Positions 4,456 through 42,710 of a stretch of DNA of 44,793 nucleotides are shown here, piece after piece. Source of the stretch: a phage; the sequence record PZ445535.1. The stretch is one strand, 5' to 3'. The notes under the pieces were generated by a model, which worked only from the letters and a program-made list of their open reading frames with translations, did not search any database and was not told where the DNA came from. How positions within the stretch are numbered: the first letter of the stretch is position 1; each line of letters starts with the position of its first letter. Position numbers and translations under genes: made by a program.

Positions 4456-5217
4456 TTAGCGCGGAATACCGCAAATCTCGTTTAGTGTTTTCACGTCAAG
4501 CGCTACTGCCGTTGACTTTTTCTCTTCCTGCGGGATGAACTGTTTAACTTCGGGCCATGCCTTAATAAGTTTGGTGTCTGTGGTGTATTTATTCAATGTT
4601 CCCATAACCGACAATTTAAACTCATCATATTTTGCACGTAAAGCCCGGCGTGCTTTGTCGTTCTTATCCAGACGTTTGCAAAACTCATGATCTGCCGGGT
4701 AATCTGCACGACCCCGCGGCATGTAGATCGGCACTTGCTCGCCTTCCTCGTTGAGTTCCACCAGCGCCGCAAGTAGCGCCGTCGCAAACCCCGGTACGAT
4801 TTCGCCAATATCAGGGGCCATCATGTTATTGAATTTATCCTCCCAGTACCCGCGATGGCAACGCCAGCTATAGTTATCGCCACTCAATGACAGTGTGCGA
4901 ATATTCCCGCCCATGTTGACTTCGAACGTTGCGTCATATACAGACCCGATGCCGTGGGGCATGTCTTTGTTATGGCTGAAGGTAGCGCGGCTGGCGTACA
5001 CGCTTATGCTAAACATATTGTTGTATGCGTCTTGAAAGCTGCGCATCATTTTCTGCAAACCGACGAAATTGGTAACACCTTCCGGCATCTGATCCATGGT
5101 GATAGCCATAGCAAGGTCGCGCGATTCGGCCATTATCTTTTTGGCCTGCTTCGTGATTTCGTGGTCGGCCAGGATGTTAGCCAGAATCTGCTTTTTAATG
5201 TCTTTGGTCAGTCTCAT
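4456..5217 (-). CDS. hypothetical protein (reverse-oriented moron in head module)
   Basis: 253 aa (MRLTKD...); RBS GAGGAA 6 nt upstream of ATG at 5217; own sigma70-like promoter; convergent terminator shared with Rz1; no motif recognised. Confidence 0.6.
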   Translation of the reverse strand: MRLTKDIKKQILANILADHEITKQAKKIMAESRDLAMAITMDQMPEGVTNFVGLQKMMRSFQDAYNNMFSISVYASRATFSHNKDMPHGIGSVYDATFEVNMGGNIRTLSLSGDNYSWRCHRGYWEDKFNNMMAPDIGEIVPGFATALLAALVELNEEGEQVPIYMPRGRADYPADHEFCKRLDKNDKARRALRAKYDEFKLSVMGTLNKYTTDTKLIKAWPEVKQFIPQEEKKSTAVALDVKTLNEICGIPR

Positions 5218-5247
5218 CGTCATTTCCTCATTGGTTGGTGTGCAACC

Positions 5248-5276
5248 AATATATTGCAACCAACCCCCGTATGCAA
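5248..5276 (-). promoter_or_regulatory. sigma70-like promoter for moron gene (TTGCAT-N17-TATATT)
   Basis: Minus strand reads TTGCAT acgggggttggttgcaa TATATT ggttgcacacc...GAGGAA; contains ATTGGTTGCA motif. Confidence 0.45.
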
Positions 5277-10534: not shown

Positions 10535-10848
10535 TTGCGGCGGCGCGACGATTTTATGGTCCGCCGCCACCGTCCGAAGACCTTGCCGCTAGTTTATGGG
10601 GTGCGGCCCCCGAAGATATTTGCCCGCCAGTTGCATTATGGCCTGATAACGTCCAGGTCGTTGCCGTTTTCACGGACTGCTCGACGCAGTGGCGCACCGG
10701 TTTTAATGGTGCATACGGCATCGACTATGGCGTACTGGAATGGTTGTTTAAAATGCACGGCATCGAAAACGAGAAGCGCGCTTTTAAAGATATTAAGCTA
10801 ATGGAGCGTATCGCACTCGACGAAATCGCAGCACAACAGGCCGGGTAA
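10172..10848 (+). CDS. tail assembly chaperone frameshift fusion (GT-like), programmed -1 frameshift at 10525-10531
   Basis: A_AAA_AAC heptamer in zero frame 5 codons before the stop; -1 frame stays open to TAA at 10846-10848 and encodes ...KKLIAAARRFYGPPPPSEDLAASLWGAAPEDICPPVALWPDNVQVVAVF...; intrinsic terminator follows. Confidence 0.7.
10525..10531 (+). other. -1 programmed ribosomal frameshift slippery heptamer A_AAA_AAC
   Basis: Heptamer in zero frame of chaperone gene; -1 frame open for 105 further codons. Confidence 0.7.
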
Positions 10849-10862
10849 TTCCGGCCTTTTTC
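10839..10862 (+). terminator. intrinsic terminator after chaperone frameshift ORF
   Basis: GGCCGG-GTAATT-CCGGCC hairpin followed by TTTTT; overlaps stop codon of -1 frame product. Confidence 0.6.
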
Positions 10863-11190
10863 GTATCGGGACAAGCGGGACGTCCCGTTTTTGTCCCACC
10901 CATCCCGCCACACCGAAAACTGCATACCTATTCAGAAATACTGCATAAAACCAAAACGGGACAAAAACGGGACAAGCGGGACGTCCCGCCTCAAAAGTGC
11001 ATACCTATGCAATTTTCGTGCATAAAACAAACGGGACAAAAACGGGACAGATTCCGCGCGGGACAAAGCGGGACGTCCCGCCGTCCCAGTCAGTGCTGCC
11101 GCGGGTTTCAGCCGTTCGGGACAAGCGGGACAAAGCCCAGTCTTTCAGACTAGACGGGGGTCAATGGCCCCCCTCGTCTGAGACTGAATA
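10863..11190. repeat. iteron-rich element A (about 11 CGGGACA heptamers, three GGGACGTCCC palindromes, two ~78-bp tandem units, terminal G/C-rich inverted repeat)
   Basis: Non-coding 400-bp gap inside tail operon; heptamer CGGGACA at 10867, 10957, 10968, 11032, 11043, 11059, 11117, 11126 etc.; inverted repeat CAGTCTTTCAGACTAGACGGGGG...CCCCCCTCGTCTGAGACTG at 11138-11186. Confidence 0.8.
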
Positions 11191-11256
11191 AGGTTGGTTG
11201 CAAAATGACTGATACAATACAAACGGCAACTTGCATAAAAAGGGGGGGACTGCATA

Positions 11257-21415: not shown

Positions 21416-23329
21416 ATGGCAGCGGGTATACTTAACGTAACAAACAATAGCAAGGCCGTAACGGGGTCGGGCACGACGTTTACGTCATTGAAAGCAGGCG
21501 ACTTTTTATCGCTGGTGGTGGGGCAAGTCCCATACACCGTAGCGATCGAATCAATCCAGAGTAACACGGCGCTTACGCTGGTGCTGCCGTTTGACGGTCC
21601 GACGTCTACCGGTCTGGCCTGGTCGTCGGTTGACCGCGATACTATGTCACTGGCTACTATGGGCGTAACCGTGCAGGCGCAGAAAGCGCTACGTCTTATG
21701 ATCGCGGACGAAAATAACTGGCGTGCAATCTTCGGTGACGCAGAGCAAATCAGCGTTACACTACCCAACGGCACCGTAATGCAAGGTATGTCGTGGGGCT
21801 ACTTGTCCAGTCTGCTTAATGACGTAGACCCCGTTGAAATGCGCAACCTGCAACAGCAGGCTGAGACTGCTAAAAACCAGGCGGTAACCGCGAAGGGGCA
21901 AGCAGAATCGGCACGCGATGCTGCTAACACCGCGAAGACTGGGGCGGAGAATGCCCGCAACCAGGCTAACAATGCTAAAACCGACGCGCAGACGGCAAAA
22001 AGGCAGGCCGAAGCCGCTCGCGATGCTGCTGTCACTGCGAAGACTGGGGCGGAGAATGCCCGCAACCAGGCGCAAGGCTACCGAGATGAGGCGGAAGGTT
22101 TTAAAAACCAGATTAACCCTGCACTATTCGTGCAGAAGTCGCAAAACCTTAATGACGTTGCCGATAAAGCAGAGGCGCGCGCTAACTTGCAAGTTTTCTT
22201 TGCATCAAACTCTAACCTGGGAACTACAGACCTCAATACGCTCGACAGCACGAAGGAAGGGCGTTATTACCAGACCACCTCGGTGAACGCGACACCCGAG
22301 CGTAACTACCCGTTTCAGGAAGCCGGTTGTCTTACCGTGTTTAAAACGGGAGGGGGTAGTGTGGAGGCTTGCATCCAGGAGTACACCACGTTTTCAAGCC
22401 TGCGTCGGTTCGTCCGTTCGCTCGCTGGGGCGGTATGGACGGCGTGGAAGGAGATCTACCTGCAAGGGTCGTCCCCGACATACGAAAATATCGACTCGAC
22501 AGGACGAGTTAGATCTGAAAAGGCATATCCAGCATTCGAGTGGGTGTCGACGAGAGTAGCCGACGATTTCATCGGTAAGCGAGTCAGCATTGAGAACGAC
22601 ACAGGCGTTAATATGAATATGTTCTTCATGCAGAAAGACACAACCGCAAACAGACGTGTCGTAGCGTTCGCAAGGCCAAACTCTACTGTTTTCCACTTCG
22701 TAGGGTATAACGGCGGGCTACCTACAGACGGCAACAGCGCCCCGTCGAATAACATTAACTTTAACACGCAACCGCAAGGATGGCGTATGGTGTCCGGCGG
22801 CTGGCAAAATGCACCGCTCGATGGGAACAACTACGGGACTTTATTCACGCAGTGTGTGCAAGGTGTGTCGCAGGGGGATTCGAAAGACAACGGTACATCT
22901 GGCTTGTGGTATTCACAGCGATATGTTAATACCGATTCTAGGGTGTTCATCCGAAATCAAACAAACAACGCAGCCTGGGGCAGGTGGTATGAATTTACTA
23001 AAACGGCAGTCTCGGATGAACGCCTGAAGAATGTAAAAGGGGATTTGAATGTTGAAGGTGCGCTCGATAACATCAACCGCATGGAATTTAAAATATTCTC
23101 GTTTAAGGATGAGAAGGCTGGGAAGGGGTATCGTCGCGGTGTTATCTCGCAGCAGATTCGCCAGATCGATAAAGAGTACACGAAGGAGATCGGCGGGTAC
23201 TATCACCTCGACCAGACACCAATGCTACTGGATGCCCTCGCGGCAATTAAGGCGTTGCGTGCGCGTGACGAGGCTAATAAAGCAGAGATTGCAGAACTGA
23301 AAGCAGCGATCGCTGAATTGAAGAAATAA
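21416..23329 (+). CDS. lateral tail fiber with C-terminal intramolecular chaperone (S74-like) domain
   Basis: 637 aa; Ala/Asn/Gln-rich coiled-coil repeats; C-terminal SDERLKN...coiled-coil tail typical of self-cleaving fiber chaperone domains; RBS AAGGAG; bidirectional terminator downstream. Confidence 0.75.
   Translation: MAAGILNVTNNSKAVTGSGTTFTSLKAGDFLSLVVGQVPYTVAIESIQSNTALTLVLPFDGPTSTGLAWSSVDRDTMSLATMGVTVQAQKALRLMIADENNWRAIFGDAEQISVTLPNGTVMQGMSWGYLSSLLNDVDPVEMRNLQQQAETAKNQAVTAKGQAESARDAANTAKTGAENARNQANNAKTDAQTAKRQAEAARDAAVTAKTGAENARNQAQGYRDEAEGFKNQINPALFVQKSQNLNDVADKAEARANLQVFFASNSNLGTTDLNTLDSTKEGRYYQTTSVNATPERNYPFQEAGCLTVFKTGGGSVEACIQEYTTFSSLRRFVRSLAGAVWTAWKEIYLQGSSPTYENIDSTGRVRSEKAYPAFEWVSTRVADDFIGKRVSIENDTGVNMNMFFMQKDTTANRRVVAFARPNSTVFHFVGYNGGLPTDGNSAPSNNINFNTQPQGWRMVSGGWQNAPLDGNNYGTLFTQCVQGVSQGDSKDNGTSGLWYSQRYVNTDSRVFIRNQTNNAAWGRWYEFTKTAVSDERLKNVKGDLNVEGALDNINRMEFKIFSFKDEKAGKGYRRGVISQQIRQIDKEYTKEIGGYYHLDQTPMLLDALAAIKALRARDEANKAEIAELKAAIAELKK
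21911..22071 (+). repeat. 105-bp in-frame tandem duplication inside tail fiber gene
   Basis: 56-nt blocks at 21911-21966 and 22016-22071 nearly identical (AGACTGGGGCGGAGAATGCCCGCAACCAGGC); encode repeated ARDAA-TAKTGAENARNQA. Confidence 0.7.
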
Positions 23330-24554: not shown

Positions 24555-24583
24555 AATATAATTGGTTGCATTATTGGTTGCAA
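24555..24583 (-). promoter_or_regulatory. sigma70-like promoter (TTGCAA-N17-TATATT) with 5' stem-loop
   Basis: Minus strand: cacTTGCAAccaataatgcaaccaatTATATT; GC stem-loop CGGGAGG...CCTCCCG at 24525-24546 at predicted 5' end. Confidence 0.45.
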
Positions 24584-25041: not shown

Positions 25042-25259
25042 TTTAATTCCGCCATTAAATTTTCACGTACAATACGGGCCGAGAATGCGTCGCACACAAG
25101 ATGGCAACGCGCCGTCATGACAAGCCAGCCAGTTAGGTCAAGGCCCAGCAATTGATGTGGTTGGCTTGCGCGCCTTACTTTATTTCCAGGGAAAACCTGG
25201 TAGCGTTTAATTATTTCATCCACGACGCGAGGACTTCGGTCGACGACTAAGATATTCAT
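25038..25259 (-). CDS. hypothetical protein
   Basis: 73 aa; RBS AAGGTG 7 nt upstream; ATGA overlap with downstream gene. Confidence 0.4.
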   Translation of the reverse strand: MNILVVDRSPRVVDEIIKRYQVFPGNKVRRASQPHQLLGLDLTGWLVMTARCHLVCDAFSARIVRENLMAELK

Positions 25260-25725
25260 TTAATTCACCTTCGCTCATTATTTCGATTTGTGCGCTGCCG
25301 TTTGGCGGCACTTCTTCAAAGATTATCAATTGCTGGCATTTGTTGTTACTCGGCCCGACCTTACCGGTGACGGCGTGTATAAACCGGATCCGCCAGTCCA
25401 GCAAAATAATCAGGTTGGCTGTTTGCCTTGCCAGTTTGGCCCACTTCGTGGTCGTATCCTGGTTGAGCAACATTACCGTTCTACGCCCCTGCGATGCGCA
25501 AGTCACCCACGGCAGCGGGTCGGAATACGGCGGATTGCACCACTTCCACCCGGTTAACTCTGACCAGTCAGCATCAAGTGCGCTGTGCTCTTTCGTGAAG
25601 TAGCGCGGTAATAGATGGTTGTGGTCGCTCGCCGCCATGTCGTAGCGGAATTTAAACGCCTTGCGCAGTGGCTTAAATAAAGCGGGCGGCGTTCGCCAGC
25701 TATCCTTCTGCTCATTCTCCGTCAT
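25216..25725 (-). CDS. DNA N6-adenine methyltransferase (phage Dam-like)
   Basis: 169 aa from ATG 25725; N-terminal WRTPPALF and catalytic NPPY motifs; start overlaps upstream gene by 14 nt (translational coupling). Confidence 0.6.
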   Translation of the reverse strand: MTENEQKDSWRTPPALFKPLRKAFKFRYDMAASDHNHLLPRYFTKEHSALDADWSELTGWKWCNPPYSDPLPWVTCASQGRRTVMLLNQDTTTKWAKLARQTANLIILLDWRIRFIHAVTGKVGPSNNKCQQLIIFEEVPPNGSAQIEIMSEGELNEYLSRRPKSSRRG

Positions 25726-26176
25726 GCTGCGGGTCCAGTGCGTAAAGTGGGATCTGTTTGGCGCTTTCCCACAGGCGTTTAATTCTTTCCTGCTCGCCTT
25801 TACCCATCTGGCGCATGTCCGTACTATAGTTGCCGTTGGTGGTGTCACGCCACGCGATCAGCACAAGGTCTTTACGGTCGATCTTCGTTGTGCGGCCTTT
25901 CGGACGGACGTATTCTTCAGCACGTTTGCAATGCTCGCGCAGGGCATCGGCGGTTAGCCGGGTGAGCGATACGGATGTTGTGTACCCGGTGCGCTGCATA
26001 ATGGTGATCAGTTCGCCCAGCAGTTCGAAGCGTTCCGCCAGTTCCTTGCGGGCCTTCTCTTCGGCTTCATAGCTTGCCAGGTAGGTATTTGCCAACGCGG
26101 TAGCGCCGTCCGCTTTCTCGCGGGCTTCAAGACACTGTGCTACCCAGTACGCTTTTTCTTCTTGTAAAATTTTCAT
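25712..26176 (-). CDS. hypothetical protein
   Basis: 154 aa; RBS GGAG 8 nt upstream; TAATG overlap with upstream gene. Confidence 0.5.
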   Translation of the reverse strand: MKILQEEKAYWVAQCLEAREKADGATALANTYLASYEAEEKARKELAERFELLGELITIMQRTGYTTSVSLTRLTADALREHCKRAEEYVRPKGRTTKIDRKDLVLIAWRDTTNGNYSTDMRQMGKGEQERIKRLWESAKQIPLYALDPQHDGE

Positions 26177-26418: not shown

Positions 26419-26435
26419 CGTCAAATCCTCATATT

Positions 26436-26464: not shown

Positions 26465-26493
26465 AATATAATGCAACCAATCTCGCAATGCAA
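26465..26493 (-). promoter_or_regulatory. sigma70-like promoter (TTGCAT-N17-TATATT)
   Basis: Minus strand: attggTTGCATtgcgagattggttgcatTATATT; tandem motif copies. Confidence 0.45.
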
Positions 26494-26498
26494 CCAAT

Positions 26499-29425: not shown

Positions 29426-29454
29426 ACTATAACTTTATGCGACCAATTCCGCAA
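29426..29454 (-). promoter_or_regulatory. candidate promoter (TTGCGG-N17-TATAGT)
   Basis: Minus strand: attggTTGCGGaattggtcgcataaagtTATAGT; overlaps last codons of VRR-NUC gene. Confidence 0.3.
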
Positions 29455-29713
29455 CCAATAAATCCGCGTCGTGGATGTTGTCAATTACCCGAACATCAGC
29501 CCCGCGCTTAGCCATGCGCTCATGTTCCCGTACCTGGTGCGGCTTCGGCTTGCCTCCGGGGCGCTTCACTTCGACGAATACAATCTTGCCGTTGATGATG
29601 ATAATCAGGTCGGGAGCGCCTGCGCGCCCCTCCCATGCCATCTTGCGGCAGAATCCGCCGACCGCTTTTACCTTTTTCATCAGGTGACTTTGCACCTTGC
29701 CTTCAGGAGTCAT
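29435..29713 (-). CDS. VRR-NUC domain nuclease
   Basis: 92 aa; PDLIIIINGKIVFVEVKRPGG...Q..EH pattern typical of VRR-NUC PD-(D/E)xK; ATGA coupling with upstream ORF. Confidence 0.6.
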   Translation of the reverse strand: MTPEGKVQSHLMKKVKAVGGFCRKMAWEGRAGAPDLIIIINGKIVFVEVKRPGGKPKPHQVREHERMAKRGADVRVIDNIHDADLLVAELVA

Positions 29714-33193: not shown

Positions 33194-33257
33194 TTTCCAA
33201 TTCCTCAATTTGCATGTATCGGGGTTATTAGAAGCCACCCCGTCCGGCTTGGTTGCT

Positions 33258-33286
33258 AATTTACTTGGTTGCGTTTCCGCGGTCAA
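33258..33286 (-). promoter_or_regulatory. candidate promoter for SSB-like gene (TTGACC-N17-TAAATT)
   Basis: Minus strand: TTGACCgcggaaacgcaaccaagTAAATT; motif copies CGCAACCAAG / AGCAACCAAG. Confidence 0.35.
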
Positions 33287-35553: not shown

Positions 35554-36060
35554 TTAGTCTTCCAGTTCGAAATAGGTTTCGACAATTTCTTTCAGTTCGG
35601 TGTGGAAGTCTTCAACGTCGTCATCTTCCAGCTTAGCCACAGTCTTGATTTCGAACGATTCCAGCAGGTCGTCAAATTCGTCGTTCGCGTCGTCATCGTC
35701 GCCGCCTGCAATGATCGCCGCGTATTGTGCAATTTCATCGCGCATTTCTTTCAGCGGGTCGGCGTCTTTCTTAGCCTTGCCTTTGCCCTTGCCTTTGGCT
35801 GGCTTTTCTTCCGGTTCGTCTTCGTCGTCGTCATCTTCTACGACTTCTTTTTTCGCCTTGCCCTTAGCCGTGGACTTCTTAGCAGGCTTCTTATCTTCCT
35901 GCTCTTCATCTTCGTCTTTGGCTTCTTCTTCTTTCTTAGCCTTAGACGGTTTCTTATCTTCCTGCTTACCAACGGCAGCGCCATGAGTTTCGTAATGTTT
36001 AGCGATGGTTTCCAGTGCTACTACGCCGCGAGTAATCAGATTCAGGATTTGCTCAAACAT
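35554..36060 (-). CDS. highly acidic / Lys-rich low-complexity protein (first early gene)
   Basis: 168 aa from ATG 36060; RBS GGAGA 6 nt upstream; about 45% D/E plus K-rich blocks; first ORF downstream of TTGACA...TATTAT promoter. Confidence 0.55.
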   Translation of the reverse strand: MFEQILNLITRGVVALETIAKHYETHGAAVGKQEDKKPSKAKKEEEAKDEDEEQEDKKPAKKSTAKGKAKKEVVEDDDDEDEPEEKPAKGKGKGKAKKDADPLKEMRDEIAQYAAIIAGGDDDDANDEFDDLLESFEIKTVAKLEDDDVEDFHTELKEIVETYFELED

Positions 36061-36107
36061 GGTATGTCTCCGTTTAGTTAAAAGTGAATGTCGTTTCGAC
36101 GAGGTGA

Positions 36108-36137
36108 ATAATAGATTGGTTGCAGTATGGGTGTCAA
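36108..36137 (-). promoter_or_regulatory. sigma70-like early promoter for minus-strand operon (TTGACA-N18-TATTAT)
   Basis: Minus strand: TTGACAcccatactgcaaccaatcTATTAT; about 40 nt upstream of acidic-protein RBS. Confidence 0.5.
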
Positions 36138-36147
36138 CAACTAATTT

Positions 36148-36184
36148 AAAAAAAAAAATCCCCGAAGCAAAACGCAACGGGGAT
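36148..36184 (-). terminator. intrinsic terminator in divergent promoter region
   Basis: On minus strand TCCCCG-13 nt loop-CGGGGA hairpin followed by a run of 11 T. Confidence 0.6.
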
Positions 36185-36206
36185 AACCATAAGAGACAAT
36201 GAGACT
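36148..36206 (-). ncRNA. candidate short terminated transcript (sRNA-like) between divergent early promoters
   Basis: Predicted start about 7 nt downstream of extended -10 at 36213-36221; canonical hairpin + U11 terminator at 36148-36184; no convincing ORF. Confidence 0.2.
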
Positions 36207-36212
36207 GTTTTT

Positions 36213-36241
36213 ATTATTACACGCGCGCGCGCCCGTTTCAA
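36213..36241 (-). promoter_or_regulatory. candidate promoter with extended -10 (TTGAAA-N17-TGtAATAAT) feeding the terminator at 36148-36184
   Basis: Minus strand: TTGAAAcgggcgcgcgcgcgTGtAATAAT; spacer includes a (CG)5 tract. Confidence 0.3.
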
Positions 36242-36253
36242 TATACAAAACAG

Positions 36254-36282
36254 TTGACACCGGTTTAATTTGGGTGTAGTTT
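36254..36282 (+). promoter_or_regulatory. sigma70-like promoter for HTH/primase operon (TTGACA-N17-TAGTTT)
   Basis: TTGACA at 36254-36259, TAGTTT at 36277-36282; spacer holds inverted repeat ACACC...GGTGT. Confidence 0.45.
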
Positions 36283-36313
36283 CTTTGGTCATTAACCAAC
36301 AGGAGGCTGAATT

Positions 36314-36643
36314 ATGAATATCAACGAAGCAATTGAAGTGTTATCTAATGCAATCCGCGGCGAGTCTGGTAAATCCTGGTATTACACAAATGCGGTGGAT
36401 ACTCTGTTATTTGAAGTGTCCAGATTATCGCGTGCCGAGAAAGAGCTTACCGCCAAACTTGAATTGCTGAACGGTACGGCAGCGAGCAAGCTGCAAAAGC
36501 ATAACGAAGAAATGGAAGAATACAAAAAGCAGGTTATCAGACTGCGCGAAGAGGGTAAGTCCTGGGCGATGATTGCCGAGTTAACAGGCATTAACCAGAG
36601 CACGGTGCGATCCTGGGTACGCAATACTAAAACCGCTAAGTAA
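36314..36643 (+). CDS. helix-turn-helix DNA-binding protein (putative regulator)
   Basis: 109 aa; C-terminal HTH-like SWAMIAELTGINQSTVRSWV; RBS AGGAGG; first gene of divergent plus-strand operon. Confidence 0.55.
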   Translation: MNINEAIEVLSNAIRGESGKSWYYTNAVDTLLFEVSRLSRAEKELTAKLELLNGTAASKLQKHNEEMEEYKKQVIRLREEGKSWAMIAELTGINQSTVRSWVRNTKTAK

Positions 36644-36652
36644 GGGATTGAG

Positions 36653-38920
36653 ATGATGAGAAATATAGAATTTGCGATCACACCTCCCGCAAAGAAAGGT
36701 GAATCAGCGGTAGCCCATAACCAATCCATGACTACCGCCGAGTTTTTCGAGTTTATGCTGGATGCGCCGGTGGTGTCGTCAGTTTGCATTAACGGCACTG
36801 AAGATAAGAAAGAATACGCCCGTCGTAAGCGTAAAGGCGACGGTATTGTGGCGACCACCGCCGACGGTACGCGTAAGAAGACCGGCGTTGTTGACCGTTC
36901 GATCCTGTTCTTTGACCTGGACCGCGCCGACAACCGCACACTTACCCGCTGCCGTAGGGCTTTTCGCAAGTCCGGGCTGGAGTATGTCTATCACACCACC
37001 ACCGGCGACCGCCACCCGTTGAAAGACGGCAAACGTTGCGCCCGTTTCCTTGTGCTGACAAACAAACCAGTTCCGGCTGAAGACCTGGGCCGCGCGCAGG
37101 CTGCACTGCTCGAACAACTGGGCCTTACAGACGCGGGCTTTGATGACTGTTCGAAAGACACAAACCGTCTTATGTACTTGCCACACCAGCAGGCTAAGGT
37201 CGAATGCCATGAAGGTAAACGCGCTAACGTGCGTCGTCTGCTTCGCCGGGCTGACCGGATGGGTATTGAGCAGGAGACGTTTCGCCGTGAACTGGCGCAG
37301 GGCGACGACGAGCAGATGAACGGAATCCTCGACTGGTGTTTCCAGGCTGGCTTTGAGCCGTTGCCATCCGGGCGCGGTTATGAAGTGCCGTGCCCGAACG
37401 AACATCTGCACTCTGGCGAAGGGTCAACCGCTATCATGCTTAAGGATGGCGAGATCCGTTTCAAATGTATGCACACCGGCAACGGTTGCTGTTCGGAACT
37501 GAACAAACACCAGCACCTGGCGCTACGCATGATTGGCATCCCGGATATTTATAACGTGGAACCGCACAACATGTCACGCAAACAGATCTCGGCTATCCTG
37601 CCAGGTCTGGACGATGAAGAAGTGGACGCGCAGTATGAGCACATGGTCGATCTGGTAGGTGAGGGTGAGGATTATGCTTCCTGTACCGACGCAGACCTGG
37701 AAGACGAACCGACGGCGCTGTTCTCTAAGCACGACCCGATCATCGAAGGTCTGATTAACTTCAAATCGACCTGGTACGCAGCGGGCGAGTCGAACATTGG
37801 TAAGTCCTTCTTTGTCCTGGGTCAGATGGCTGCCGTTGCCGCTGGCATTCCGTTCGGCGGCGCGAAGGTCGTCCAGTCACATTGCTTCTATTTCGATGCG
37901 GAAGGTGGCGAGGCGTCACACCAGCGTAAAGAGGCACTGCAGATTAAATATGAGCACGACCTGGATAAGCTGCACATTATCGACCTTCAGGCCCGCGGCT
38001 GGGATATTACGAGCAAATCCGGCCTGCGTGAAGTCATCAGCTTTATCAACCGCACCGCGGATGGTGAACCGGTCGGCCTGGTGGCATTCGACTCCCTTAA
38101 CCAGACAGTGGCCCTGCGATCTGCTGACGCCAAACCGTTCGATGAGAACAACGCAAGCGATATGGGTGAGATTGTCAAAGCGCTGAAGGCCATTGCGGAA
38201 AACACAGGCGGCAGTGCGGGCGTCATCCACCACCCGGCTAAGGGTGCAAACGGCAGCAGATCCCCGCGGGGGTCCGGTGCGCTACATGGCGCGGTGGATT
38301 CTGCATTCTTCCTGGAACAGCCAGACGAGAATCAGCCGGGCCAGCTAAACCTGTACCACGAAAAAGCACGTAACGGCGTCAAACAGGGTCCGCGCGGCTT
38401 CGTGCTACTGAAGTGCAAAGTATCCATTAACGAGCGCAAGTCTGACTCGTTCGAAGCGCACCAGTCCACTAACCCCGGACCGGACTTCGGCGATGTAGTT
38501 GCCGGATGGGACGTCAAGCCAATCCAGGCCACGCCGCGCGACGAGACTCTGTACCTCGTACCGGTAGCGCTGACCCCGTTCGCTATTGAACAGGCTAAGG
38601 CGGCAGGCAAGCAGGCTGTTAAGGATGAGAACACCGCAGGCCCGCGCAATGAAAAAGAGAAAGTGCTGTACGCAGCGCTCGAAGCGTTGATGGAAGAGAA
38701 TCCGGGCCACCACGGCTTCAGCAAATCGGCAATCGTCCGCAAAGCTGGGCTGGCGAAAGGCGGCACTTCGACGAAGCCAATCGACGATATGCGCGAGCGC
38801 GGAATCATCGGCTTTTACAAAGACCCGGACACCGGGGCCATTTACGGGTCGTCGAATCTGGTTATCAATTCACAAATATCTATGCAATTGACGGCGACGG
38901 ACGACGACCTTAAAGATTAA
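36653..38920 (+). CDS. DNA primase-helicase (AEP-like N-terminal domain, zinc motif, RecA-fold ATPase)
   Basis: 755 aa; N-terminal FFDLDRAD / HTTTGDRHPL acidic motifs; Cys/His cluster CPNEHLH...CMHTGNGCC; Walker A AGESNIGKS and Walker B LVAFDSL. Confidence 0.65.
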   Translation: MMRNIEFAITPPAKKGESAVAHNQSMTTAEFFEFMLDAPVVSSVCINGTEDKKEYARRKRKGDGIVATTADGTRKKTGVVDRSILFFDLDRADNRTLTRCRRAFRKSGLEYVYHTTTGDRHPLKDGKRCARFLVLTNKPVPAEDLGRAQAALLEQLGLTDAGFDDCSKDTNRLMYLPHQQAKVECHEGKRANVRRLLRRADRMGIEQETFRRELAQGDDEQMNGILDWCFQAGFEPLPSGRGYEVPCPNEHLHSGEGSTAIMLKDGEIRFKCMHTGNGCCSELNKHQHLALRMIGIPDIYNVEPHNMSRKQISAILPGLDDEEVDAQYEHMVDLVGEGEDYASCTDADLEDEPTALFSKHDPIIEGLINFKSTWYAAGESNIGKSFFVLGQMAAVAAGIPFGGAKVVQSHCFYFDAEGGEASHQRKEALQIKYEHDLDKLHIIDLQARGWDITSKSGLREVISFINRTADGEPVGLVAFDSLNQTVALRSADAKPFDENNASDMGEIVKALKAIAENTGGSAGVIHHPAKGANGSRSPRGSGALHGAVDSAFFLEQPDENQPGQLNLYHEKARNGVKQGPRGFVLLKCKVSINERKSDSFEAHQSTNPGPDFGDVVAGWDVKPIQATPRDETLYLVPVALTPFAIEQAKAAGKQAVKDENTAGPRNEKEKVLYAALEALMEENPGHHGFSKSAIVRKAGLAKGGTSTKPIDDMRERGIIGFYKDPDTGAIYGSSNLVINSQISMQLTATDDDLKD

Positions 38921-39030
38921 AATTTGCGCGCATTGGTTGCCGATATGGGAATTCCCATATCGCTAAAAGATTAAATTCTGCGCGCATTGGTTGCCAGATT
39001 GAGCATTAAATCTATATCGCATTGGTTGCC
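38912..39030. repeat. three direct repeats containing GCGCATTGGTTGCC plus perfect 22-bp palindrome
   Basis: 30-bp repeats at 38912-38941 and 38966-38995 (54-bp period), partial third at 39018-39030; palindrome CGATATGGGAATTCCCATATCG at 38941-38962. Confidence 0.75.
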
Positions 39031-39068
39031 GTGTAGTGCTAAATAAGTGAATAGTTATGCAAAATAAG

Positions 39069-39240
39069 TGCATAAAACAAACGGGACAAAAACGGGACAA
39101 ACTACAAGCGGGACAAAACGGGACGTCCCGCCGTCCCCGTCAGGCGTGGTGCGGATTTGAGGCGAACGGGACAAGCGGGACAGACCACAGTCTTTCAGAC
39201 TAGACGGGGGGTATTGTCCCCCCTCCGTCTGAGACTGCAT
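39069..39240. repeat. iteron-rich element B (second copy of element A core)
   Basis: 32-mer GTGCATAAAACAAACGGGACAAAAACGGGACA identical to 11018-11049; GGGACGTCCCGCCGTCCC; CGGGACAAGCGGGACA; G6/C6 inverted repeat at 39188-39237. Confidence 0.8.
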
Positions 39241-39396
39241 AAAATCTCTGGTTGCATAATCAACGGCAGCATAGTGAAAATTGCGGCGGGGGTAGATCTC
39301 GGCAACCAATGCATGTTGGATAATGGAGAGTGAAAAATGCAGTTTGCAATTGCAACTCATAGCGATCAGCATTTCCATGCGCGTGATTGATATTGG

Positions 39397-39425
39397 TTGC
39401 ATTCAGCCTGGCACCTTGCTATATT
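39397..39425 (+). promoter_or_regulatory. sigma70-like promoter (TTGCAT-N17-TATATT) for early genes at 39454+
   Basis: attggTTGCATtcagcctggcaccttgcTATATTggttgcacaccaac; shares a 20-nt block with the promoter at 5248-5276. Confidence 0.5.
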
Positions 39426-39453
39426 GGTTGCACACCAACATGAGGACTGAACG

Positions 39454-39759
39454 ATGAGAGCATTAATCTGGAGTTACACATCAGCGGTCGCAGCGCTCTA
39501 TGAAGCGAAGCACACAAACGGCAACGCCGACCACGCACGCCAGGCTGTCATGTTCGCGCAGCAGGCAATCTTTGCAGCGTTCGACAACATGGACGCCAGC
39601 CTGGATGAACTGGAACCATTGCGTGTGGCAATCTGCGAGTATGCGATGAAATTCGCCCGTGAGCGTCTTGCTTACCGGTTTGGCATCGGCGAAACGGCGA
39701 CGGCTAACATCGCCCGCATTCAGGCCCAGCGTGAGCTACACGCCTTACTTGCGAAATAA
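39454..39759 (+). CDS. hypothetical early protein
   Basis: 101 aa; RBS GAGGA; first gene after promoter TTGCAT-N17-TATATT. Confidence 0.5.
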   Translation: MRALIWSYTSAVAALYEAKHTNGNADHARQAVMFAQQAIFAAFDNMDASLDELEPLRVAICEYAMKFARERLAYRFGIGETATANIARIQAQRELHALLAK

Positions 39760-39768
39760 GGGGCTAAA

Positions 39769-40044
39769 ATGGCATGTAGACGCGCTAAATGGCTATCCTG
39801 GTATATCCCCCTGCATTGCATACGAATATGGGCACAGAATGCGATTGATGGCGATTCTGTGTTCTGGAGCTATCGGGATGACGTCAAGCCGCTGACGCAG
39901 ACCAAAATGCTGCACCAGTTCATGAACGAACACGGGCTACCGGTGAAAACATCATTGCAACCAATGGGGATTCGTATTACATTACGCCGGAAGCCCGCCG
40001 TTGAGCGGGTAGGCAAACACTGGAGACTGCGCAAATGTTCTTAG
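39769..40044 (+). CDS. hypothetical early protein
   Basis: 91 aa; RBS AAGGGG 5 nt upstream. Confidence 0.5.
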   Translation: MACRRAKWLSWYIPLHCIRIWAQNAIDGDSVFWSYRDDVKPLTQTKMLHQFMNEHGLPVKTSLQPMGIRITLRRKPAVERVGKHWRLRKCS

Positions 40045-42680: not shown

Positions 42681-42710
42681 TTGACTTGCAACCAATTAAT
42701 ATCTCATACT
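42681..42710 (+). promoter_or_regulatory. candidate promoter (TTGACT-N18-CATACT) with TGCAACCAAT motif
   Basis: TTGACTtgcaaccaattaatatctCATACT directly after terminator; upstream of HTH-phosphoesterase gene. Confidence 0.3.

Follow-up and report, generated by a model that had tools for sequence, protein, structure and literature searches.

The 44,793-nt sequence analysed here (the window) comes from a virulent, HK578-like siphovirus of E. coli in the genus Dhillonvirus. Its identity is about 90% to phage Ioannina and about 81% to phages such as Oekolampad and slur05. The 20-mer TATATTGGTTGCACACCAAC occurs in the window exactly twice, once on the minus strand (5234-5253) and once on the plus strand (39420-39439). 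A gene in the correct orientation lies downstream of each copy, with start codons at 5217 (minus) and 39454 (plus). A preliminary description had noted an identical 20-nt block upstream of two distant genes, and exact matching and direct alignment bear this out. No further matches with three or fewer mismatches are found in the window beyond the two sites, and the pair is the window's longest perfect inverted repeat (pair I2). Two matches were obtained in none of 100 dinucleotide-preserving shuffles, which rules out a chance match as the source of the pair. The features of the two sites are as follows.

4456-5217, minus strand: site-1 cargo gene, Nmad5, 253 aa (Pfam PF18757, E = 2.6e-45)
5215-5231, minus strand: RBS/start block ATGAGGAAATGACGATG of the site-1 gene, from sequence alignment
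5234-5253, minus strand: site-1 20-mer; -10 hexamer TATATT (5253-5248) fused to the core TTGGTTGCA (5249-5241), then CACCAAC
39420-39439, plus strand: site-2 20-mer; -10 hexamer TATATT (39420-39425) fused to the core TTGGTTGCA (39424-39432), then CACCAAC
39440-39456, plus strand: RBS/start block ATGAGGACTGAACGATG of the site-2 gene, from sequence alignment
39454-39759, plus strand: site-2 cargo gene, 101 aa (phrog_9839), no Pfam family

Promoter layout and accessory genes at the two sites

When the regions upstream of the two genes are aligned, their likeness is modular and extends beyond the block first described. The -10 hexamer TATATT matches TATAAT at five of six positions at both sites, and the hexamer TTGCAT, which matches TTGACA at three of six, lies exactly 17 nt upstream of it in each case. 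The corresponding -35 regions are TTGCTTGCAT at site 1 and TTGGTTGCAT at site 2, and the 17-nt spacers that follow them are unrelated in sequence. On the 3' side of the 20-mer come ATGAGGA, four variable nucleotides and ACGATGAGA, which contains the start codon; an extra CA is present at site 1 only. A GAGGA ribosome binding site (RBS) lies 7 nt before the ATG at both sites. Thus the view that the block and its surroundings hold a -10 element, a transcription start region and an RBS is a plausible one.

Placement of the core directly on the -10 hexamer accounts for 14 of the 20 bases common to both sites. The CACCAAC that follows is a partial inverted half-site to the core (TTGGT-N5-ACCAA). 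At site 1 this inverted half-site is longer, giving TTGGTTG-cacac-CAACCAA, with the inverted arm CAACCAA at 5237-5231. The predicted leaders are about 23-27 nt long, if transcription starts about 7 nt after the -10, and they are unstructured. Searches for known RNA families and tRNAs found none.

The promoters at site 1 and site 2 (P1 and P7 below) fall under the threshold of a consensus scanner because TTGCAT matches TTGACA at only three of six positions; sister promoters with TTGCAA are called at 9/12. With such -35 hexamers and subthreshold scores, the 'immediate-early' timing that had been proposed for the two genes draws no support from the sequence.

The element ATGAGGA-N4-ACGATG has a third occurrence at 26432 on the minus strand, downstream of a promoter designated P5. 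Its distribution among related phages is patchy. At P1 it is found only in the window and in one other sequence (locus L012), at P5 only in the window and in bob, and at P7 in most genomes. It therefore lies outside the conserved promoter, and would appear to be part of the 5' end of the cargo or a product of local gene conversion.

Genes have been swapped behind both promoters, as judged from comparison of related genomes. At slot 1, upstream sequence is conserved to the last base of the 20-mer, where homology ends. At least five unrelated genes occupy this slot across phages, encoding Nmad5 or proteins of 170, 104, 135 and 53 aa. At least two cargo families are found in slot 2. No cargo family common to slots 1 and 2 was found, so there is no evidence of cassettes moving between the slots. 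The exact 20-mer is present in 20 stretches of IMG/VR DNA, all from 42-45 kb contigs, and each genome has it once or twice.

Nmad5 is the sole minus-strand gene within the head-gene block. The Nmad5 protein of a Dhillonvirus is the trigger of the Tmn defence system, and its gene can be deleted (PMC11846954), which fits an accessory slot. The minus-strand gene had been called a moron, and its position in a moron-like slot whose cargo varies between phages agrees with that name. The two genes had also been described as unrelated and hypothetical, but the site-1 gene is no longer hypothetical given its match to Nmad5.

A nine-base core in promoters across the genome

The core common to both sites, the 9-mer TTGGTTGCA, is present in 14 exact copies in the window, and TTGGTTGC occurs 22 times where about 1.3 copies are expected. 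Although intergenic DNA makes up only 7.1% of the genome, twelve of the 14 exact cores lie entirely within it (binomial P ~1e-12). Reading of sequence context, together with an independent consensus scan, identifies about nine sigma70-like promoters that carry cores in either orientation. The element is thus not special to the two accessory genes, as had been supposed. Shared regulation of these two genes remains likely on account of their common promoter/operator architecture, but the element responsible is not private to them. The core-bearing promoters are listed by position.

5231-5276, minus strand: P1; -35 TTGCAT at 5276-5271, 17-nt spacer with a core at 5263-5255, TATATT to 5248, second core, inverted arm CAACCAA
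21364-21396, minus strand: P3; core at the -35 (TTGCAA), core in the spacer, n-TATATT; two forward cores; hexamers from 21392 to 21364
24555-24583, minus strand: P4; TTGCAA-17-TATATT; two reverse cores
26465-26497, minus strand: P5; two forward cores 17 bp apart, then t-TATATT; hexamers from 26493 to 26465
29426-29458, minus strand: P10, a candidate with weaker evidence; variants TTGGTTGCG and TTGGTCGCA 12 bp apart, then TATAGT
33249-33286, minus strand: P9; TTGACC-17-TAAATT; reverse variant CGCAACCAA in the spacer and AGCAACCAA fused just after the -10; hexamers from 33286 to 33258
36108-36137, minus strand: P6; TTGACA-18-TATTAT, 11/12; reverse core at 36116-36124 in the spacer
39393-39425, plus strand: P7; core at 39393-39401 supplies the -35 TTGCAT (39397-39402), 17-nt spacer without a core, -10 at 39420-39425, core at +1
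42681-42710, plus strand: P8; TTGACT-18-CATACT; reverse core at 42687-42695; just after a terminator

Cores in P1 and P3-P9 occupy three kinds of position. They overlap the -35 element, where the TTGCA of the core and one further base make up the hexamer; they lie in the spacer and end 1-2 nt before the -10; or they are fused to the 3' side of the -10. The last arrangement, in which the core also spans the start site, is seen at site 1, at site 2 and, in reverse orientation, at P9. Spacings between cores are variable (12, 14, 17 and 31 bp), and most copies are single asymmetric 9-mers. Exact and variant copies form a motif family that is restricted to promoters and intergenic DNA and is used independently of orientation.

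These promoters serve genes of several kinds. P3 drives lipoprotein and membrane-protein genes. P6, which scores highest in the window as a sigma70 promoter, stands at the head of the leftward early/replication operon, and P8 heads the packaging and structural genes. A second reverse core is fused to the -10 of P8 in three of six genomes (exact in slur05 and bob, with one mismatch in Oekolampad). On the 3' side of P5 are a terminator-like hairpin (26464-26439) and the third ATGAGGA-N4-ACGATG block. The hairpin, which has an 11-bp stem and a T-run on the minus strand, starts directly after the -10 and is kept in six genomes. Transcripts from P5 would start inside its 5' arm, and the hairpin may thus halt read-through from upstream without blocking those transcripts.

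Two further copies of the core deserve mention. One at 11194 was rejected as a promoter element, being without a proper -35/-10 frame and not conserved outside the lineage of the window and Ioannina. An exact core at 39956-39964 on the minus strand lies antisense inside the plus-strand gene 39769-40044 and is kept in six Dhillonviruses, which may reflect either coding constraint or an internal antisense site. Readings of the motif as other known elements were also set aside. The GG/GC spacing does not fit a sigma54 promoter, and DnaA boxes, MarA boxes and NtrC sites are poor matches by eye. No description of the motif, or of the promoters of Dhillonvirus, Eiauvirus or Guernseyvirinae, was found in the literature searched.

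Copies of the motif are also clustered beside a gene for replication.

38927-39312: array 3' of the primase/helicase gene; three direct copies of GCATTGGTTGCC (ends at 38941, 38995 and 39030) and one inverted copy (39300-39312)

The array flanks RCGGGACA iterons and a long hairpin. It is conserved across the genus, and similar arrays are found in Edwardsiella phage eiAU and Serratia phage Tsm2.

Several other repeats were observed in the window. A direct repeat of 181 nt (83% identity) joins 10995-11175 and 39045-39225, which are 28 kb apart; one copy separates the tail-chaperone genes from the tape-measure gene and the other comes after the primase/helicase gene. Each copy contains RCGGGACA iterons and a long conserved hairpin, CAGTCTTTCAGACTAGACGGGGG...CCCCCCTCGTCTGAGACTG, with TTGGTTGCA or CTGGTTGCA within about 25 nt on the 3' side. 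By analogy with ori and crr of phage P4, the pair could constitute a two-part origin. In relatives, the ORF annotations at 10535-11191 may be spurious. The octamer ACGGCA[AG]C has 38 copies on the plus strand and 18 on the minus strand, or about one per kb (for example, at 879, 2518, 3209 ... 40677 on the plus strand). It is found in all three reading frames and thus is not a codon effect. Words related to it top the over-representation lists of every relative examined, including phages without the TTGGTTGC motif, and it may be a Chi-like or priming-related signal. Finally, a 105-nt tandem duplication (80% identity) lies at 21857-22066 inside the lateral tail-fibre gene.

Conservation and distribution of the motif

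Six complete Dhillonvirus genomes, which were picked by genome homology and not by presence of the motif, were aligned at orthologous promoters. Conservation within these promoters is selective: core copies do not change although the spacer bases beside them vary freely, most plainly at P1 and P5. At P1, the core, the -10 and the second core are the same throughout (n=6), in contrast to the first half of the spacer, which is different in nearly all genomes. At P5, a 7-nt linker varies between two cores that are identical in every genome (n=6). The site-1 TATATT is the same in all six genomes; that of site 2 is the same in five, with TAGATT in Oekolampad. The spacer core of P4 keeps its position in six of six genomes, although its orientation differs, with TGCAACCAA in two genomes and TTGGTTGCA in four. 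Retention of a site despite such a flip favours a separate bound factor over a directional polymerase contact.

Representation of TTGGTTGC varies widely outside the genus. There are 23 copies in eiAU and 12 in Tsm2, a member of the Guernseyvirinae, compared to one and four, respectively, in the Jersey-like phages SE1 and Bas75. Enrichment in eiAU is on a par with that in the window, and Tsm2 is also enriched. On its 5' side the core is preceded by A in Dhillonviruses, whereas eiAU and Tsm2 have G there. Phage eiAU belongs to another genus. When window positions 36000-39800 (3.8 kb) are compared to it by BLASTN, only a few hundred bases of the primase/helicase gene match, and its conserved proteins are about 35-70% identical to those of the window. 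Even so, eiAU carries TTGGTTGCAt-17-TATAGTTGGTTGCaaggacGCAACCA, that is, a core at the -35, then a -10 fused to a core, then an inverted copy. A scan of viral contigs for paired cores returned mostly unrelated contigs and tandem repeats and was set aside.

It had been suggested that the two identical blocks arose by duplication of a promoter cassette. A recent event of this type does not agree with the distribution just described. Both copies are kept at both loci in the six Dhillonviruses, which are about 80% identical, and the layout is found again in eiAU, so identity of the 20-mers is no evidence of recent duplication. For the same reasons, it is better explained by selection on a functional site. 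On these comparisons the motif appears to be older than the genus, with the 20-mer identity reflecting long-term upkeep of a functional layout.

Models for the action of the core

We favour the reading in which the core is an operator for a DNA-binding regulator, situated within phage promoters and used for repression at both 20-mer sites. Its probability is about 0.5. The 20-mer would then be the downstream half of a sigma70-type promoter, with the -10 TATATT fused to an operator. This operator would consist of one core TTGGTTGCA and a partial inverted half-site (TTGGTTG-N5-CAACCAA at site 1). More generally, the core would be a sequence-specific protein-binding site at three stereotyped positions in nearly all promoters of the phage. 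In P1 and P7 it would cover approximately -7 to +2, where RNA polymerase melts DNA and begins transcription. Because of this location, repression is the most likely action at both sites. A bound regulator, together with its inverted partner, would block open-complex formation at P1 and P7, and both accessory slots would be switched off together once the regulator accumulates.

We infer that a protein binds the core and that its binding represses; the binder may be one of the candidates described below. The direction of regulation is the weakest step of the operator reading. Cores are found in promoters of every kind, including the near-consensus early P6 and P8, and a simple 'early shut-off repressor' consequently does not fit all sites. 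Cores at weak -35 hexamers would suit an activator equally well.

Several known systems resemble the arrangement in part, though in each case at least one defining feature is missing here. Among them are the stoperators of mycobacteriophages L5 and Bxb1. These sites for the gp71 and gp69 repressors are asymmetric, about 13 bp long and present in many genome copies in short intergenic regions and promoters, and they are kept among relatives. Their orientation relative to transcription is fixed, and they block elongation in the prophage. The core is likewise a short, asymmetric, repeated site that is concentrated in intergenic regions and promoters and conserved among relatives. In contrast to stoperators, its orientation is free and flips at P4, it overlaps promoter hexamers, and the phage is virulent with no repressor known. 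The lambda OR/OL operators of CI and Cro and the phi29 p4 sites resemble the arrangement in having several copies over the -35, spacer and +1, a palindromic version at the start site, and scope for both activation and repression. They differ from the sites described here, which are mostly single asymmetric 9-mers at variable spacing and whose binder is represented by candidates only.

The core could instead be a positive element, through which a phage factor brings in or alters host RNA polymerase where the -35 hexamer is poor. The genes behind the 20-mers would then be middle genes that need this factor, much as T4 MotA acts at middle promoters and lambda CII at PRE. It is in keeping with such a role that the core-derived TTGCA(A/T) is the only -35-like element in five or six promoters, and that the first gene of the rightward early operon, whose own promoter lacks a core, encodes an HTH protein of the sigma-70 region 4 type. 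However, location of cores in the spacer and across +1, their use in either orientation and the flip at P4 are atypical for activators. P6, P8 and P9 carry cores despite good -35 hexamers, and the sigma-4-like protein is absent from eiAU and Tsm2. Activation is therefore considered unlikely. We regard as rather improbable a scenario that dispenses with a separate factor altogether, wherein promoter cassettes were duplicated or recombined, host sigma70 polymerase is their sole reader and the promoters also serve as homology patches for gene swaps. The exchange of cargo exactly at the 3' end of the 20-mer is what such a process would produce, as are the terminator and promoter combinations at P6 and P8 and the hairpin 3' of P5; the patchy ATGAGGA-N4-ACGATG at P1, P5 and P7 suggests gene conversion between promoters. 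Polymerase contacts nevertheless leave unexplained the invariant spacer 9-mers, the two orientations at one position and the array without a promoter. No cargo family is found at both slots, and the block is ancient and not a recent copy. The promoter-early stem-loop (PeSL) cassettes of T4-type phages, which place a promoter and stem-loop beside variable accessory ORFs, are similar in that a conserved promoter precedes variable genes, swaps occur at the cassette border, and hairpins or terminators are present at several promoters (P5, P6 and P8). They are dissimilar in that no stem-loop adjoins the two 20-mer sites, the slots share no cargo, and the 9-mer is used at several promoter positions.

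A further alternative takes the core to be mainly a replication element, an iteron that is recognized by a phage initiator or a host protein at an origin beside the primase/helicase gene, with promoter copies coupling transcription to replication. In each of the three motif-bearing lineages, four or more copies lie at or just past the 3' end of the primase/helicase gene and next to a long non-coding stretch, and the tail of this protein contains a winged-helix-like segment. Phage genomes that carry this primase/helicase family number 637. DnaA boxes, and iterons with autoregulatory operators (RepA of phage P1, alpha of phage P4), similarly combine an asymmetric 9-mer in a replication-gene array with copies in promoters. 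On the other hand, the core matches the DnaA box at only 4/9 positions. Array copies are 54 and 35 bp apart and not helically phased, the phased word in that region being RCGGGACA; most copies are in promoters far from the array; and the winged-helix region, which would provide DNA binding in the initiator, does not co-vary with the motif. In the host version of this proposal the protein would be CytR, whose operators in Enterobacterales consist of direct or inverted half-sites and tolerate variable spacing and both orientations (PMC3454398). The TTGCA / GTTGCATT half-site is common to CytR operators and the core. In contrast, the CytR site does not include the conserved TTGG prefix of the core, the array copies (TTGGTTGCC) do not keep the final A, and the best-conserved portion, TTGGTTGC, lies largely outside the CytR pentamer. 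No CRP site is near any of the promoters: TGTGA-N6-TCACA with two or fewer mismatches has eight matches in the window compared to 15.9 expected by chance, none of them at a core-bearing promoter. A primarily replicative role is accordingly the most doubtful of these alternatives.

For the operator reading, the candidate binders are a 109-aa HTH protein, the 101-aa product of the site-2 gene, the tail of the primase/helicase and a host factor. The 109-aa protein (36314-36643, plus strand) matches Pfam Sigma70_r4_2 at 29.9 bits against a curated cutoff of 25.7. Its structure is modelled with confidence as a long coiled helix with a C-terminal HTH (pLDDT 84), which resembles resolvase- and LuxR-type HTHs over about 35 residues, with no fold match that is statistically significant. 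No homologue of this protein was found in eiAU or Tsm2, though both carry the motif; at the equivalent position, these phages have HTH proteins of the Cro/C1 type. Public annotations of the 109-aa protein as transposase, resolvase or 'recombination nuclease inhibitor gamma' look unreliable.

The site-2 protein has a conserved C-terminus that is HTH-like by eye only. Neither Pfam nor the PDB gave a match to it, and eiAU and Tsm2 lack a homologue. The primase/helicase tail gives a poor, low-confidence model, in which a helix-helix-helix-strand-strand segment (pLDDT 64-82) has best fold matches that are all winged-helix, none reaching E <= 0.001. Identity to the window over this region is 13% in eiAU and 22% in Tsm2, which carry the motif, compared to 29% in SE1; the pair lacking the motif is at 29% and 18%. 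The tail is thus no better conserved in eiAU and Tsm2 than in SE1, and co-variation with the motif was rejected. Although three candidates have HTH or winged-helix features, none is conserved in step with the motif. Sequence searches of the candidates against solved structures were uninformative, and Pfam scans of the remaining small ORFs gave no further DNA-binding domain.

In a presence/absence screen of four outgroups, only a Dam-like methyltransferase and a capsid protein track the motif, in too few genomes to mean much. The methyltransferase, of the Dam family of N6-adenine enzymes (25216-25848, minus strand), is found in eiAU and Tsm2 and is absent from SE1 and Bas75. Its 66% identity to the Tsm2 protein is unusually high, though the sample is small. 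Another protein of interest is the 168-aa product (phrog_3127) of the first gene of the leftward early operon (35554-36060, minus strand). It has an extremely acidic, low-complexity centre interspersed with lysine, is kept in eiAU, Tsm2, SE1 and Bas75, and might be a DNA mimic or a host-takeover protein.

We take the motif to be a phage-wide promoter/operator motif, which is new to the literature searched for this phage group. Dhillonviruses are much used in studies of phage defence and in therapy work, and nothing is known to have been published on the timing of their transcription. A map of about nine promoters with one operator-like core makes their transcription programme directly testable, and the 10-bp core site can be used in pull-downs with the probe ATTGGTTGCA. 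New anti-defence genes could be sought in the two slots, which also offer ready-made sites for inserting engineered payloads. A broader proposal, which we put forward tentatively and consider unlikely, is that (A/G)TTGGTTGCA is the site of one conserved factor, which could be a protein of the phage that has no known DNA-binding domain or else a protein of the enterobacterial host. This factor would be used at an origin-proximal array and at nearly all promoters in virulent siphoviruses of at least three groups (Dhillonvirus, Eiauvirus and some Guernseyvirinae). If so, (A/G)TTGGTTGCA would be a dual-use element similar to the DnaA box that couples genome-wide transcription and replication in these phages.
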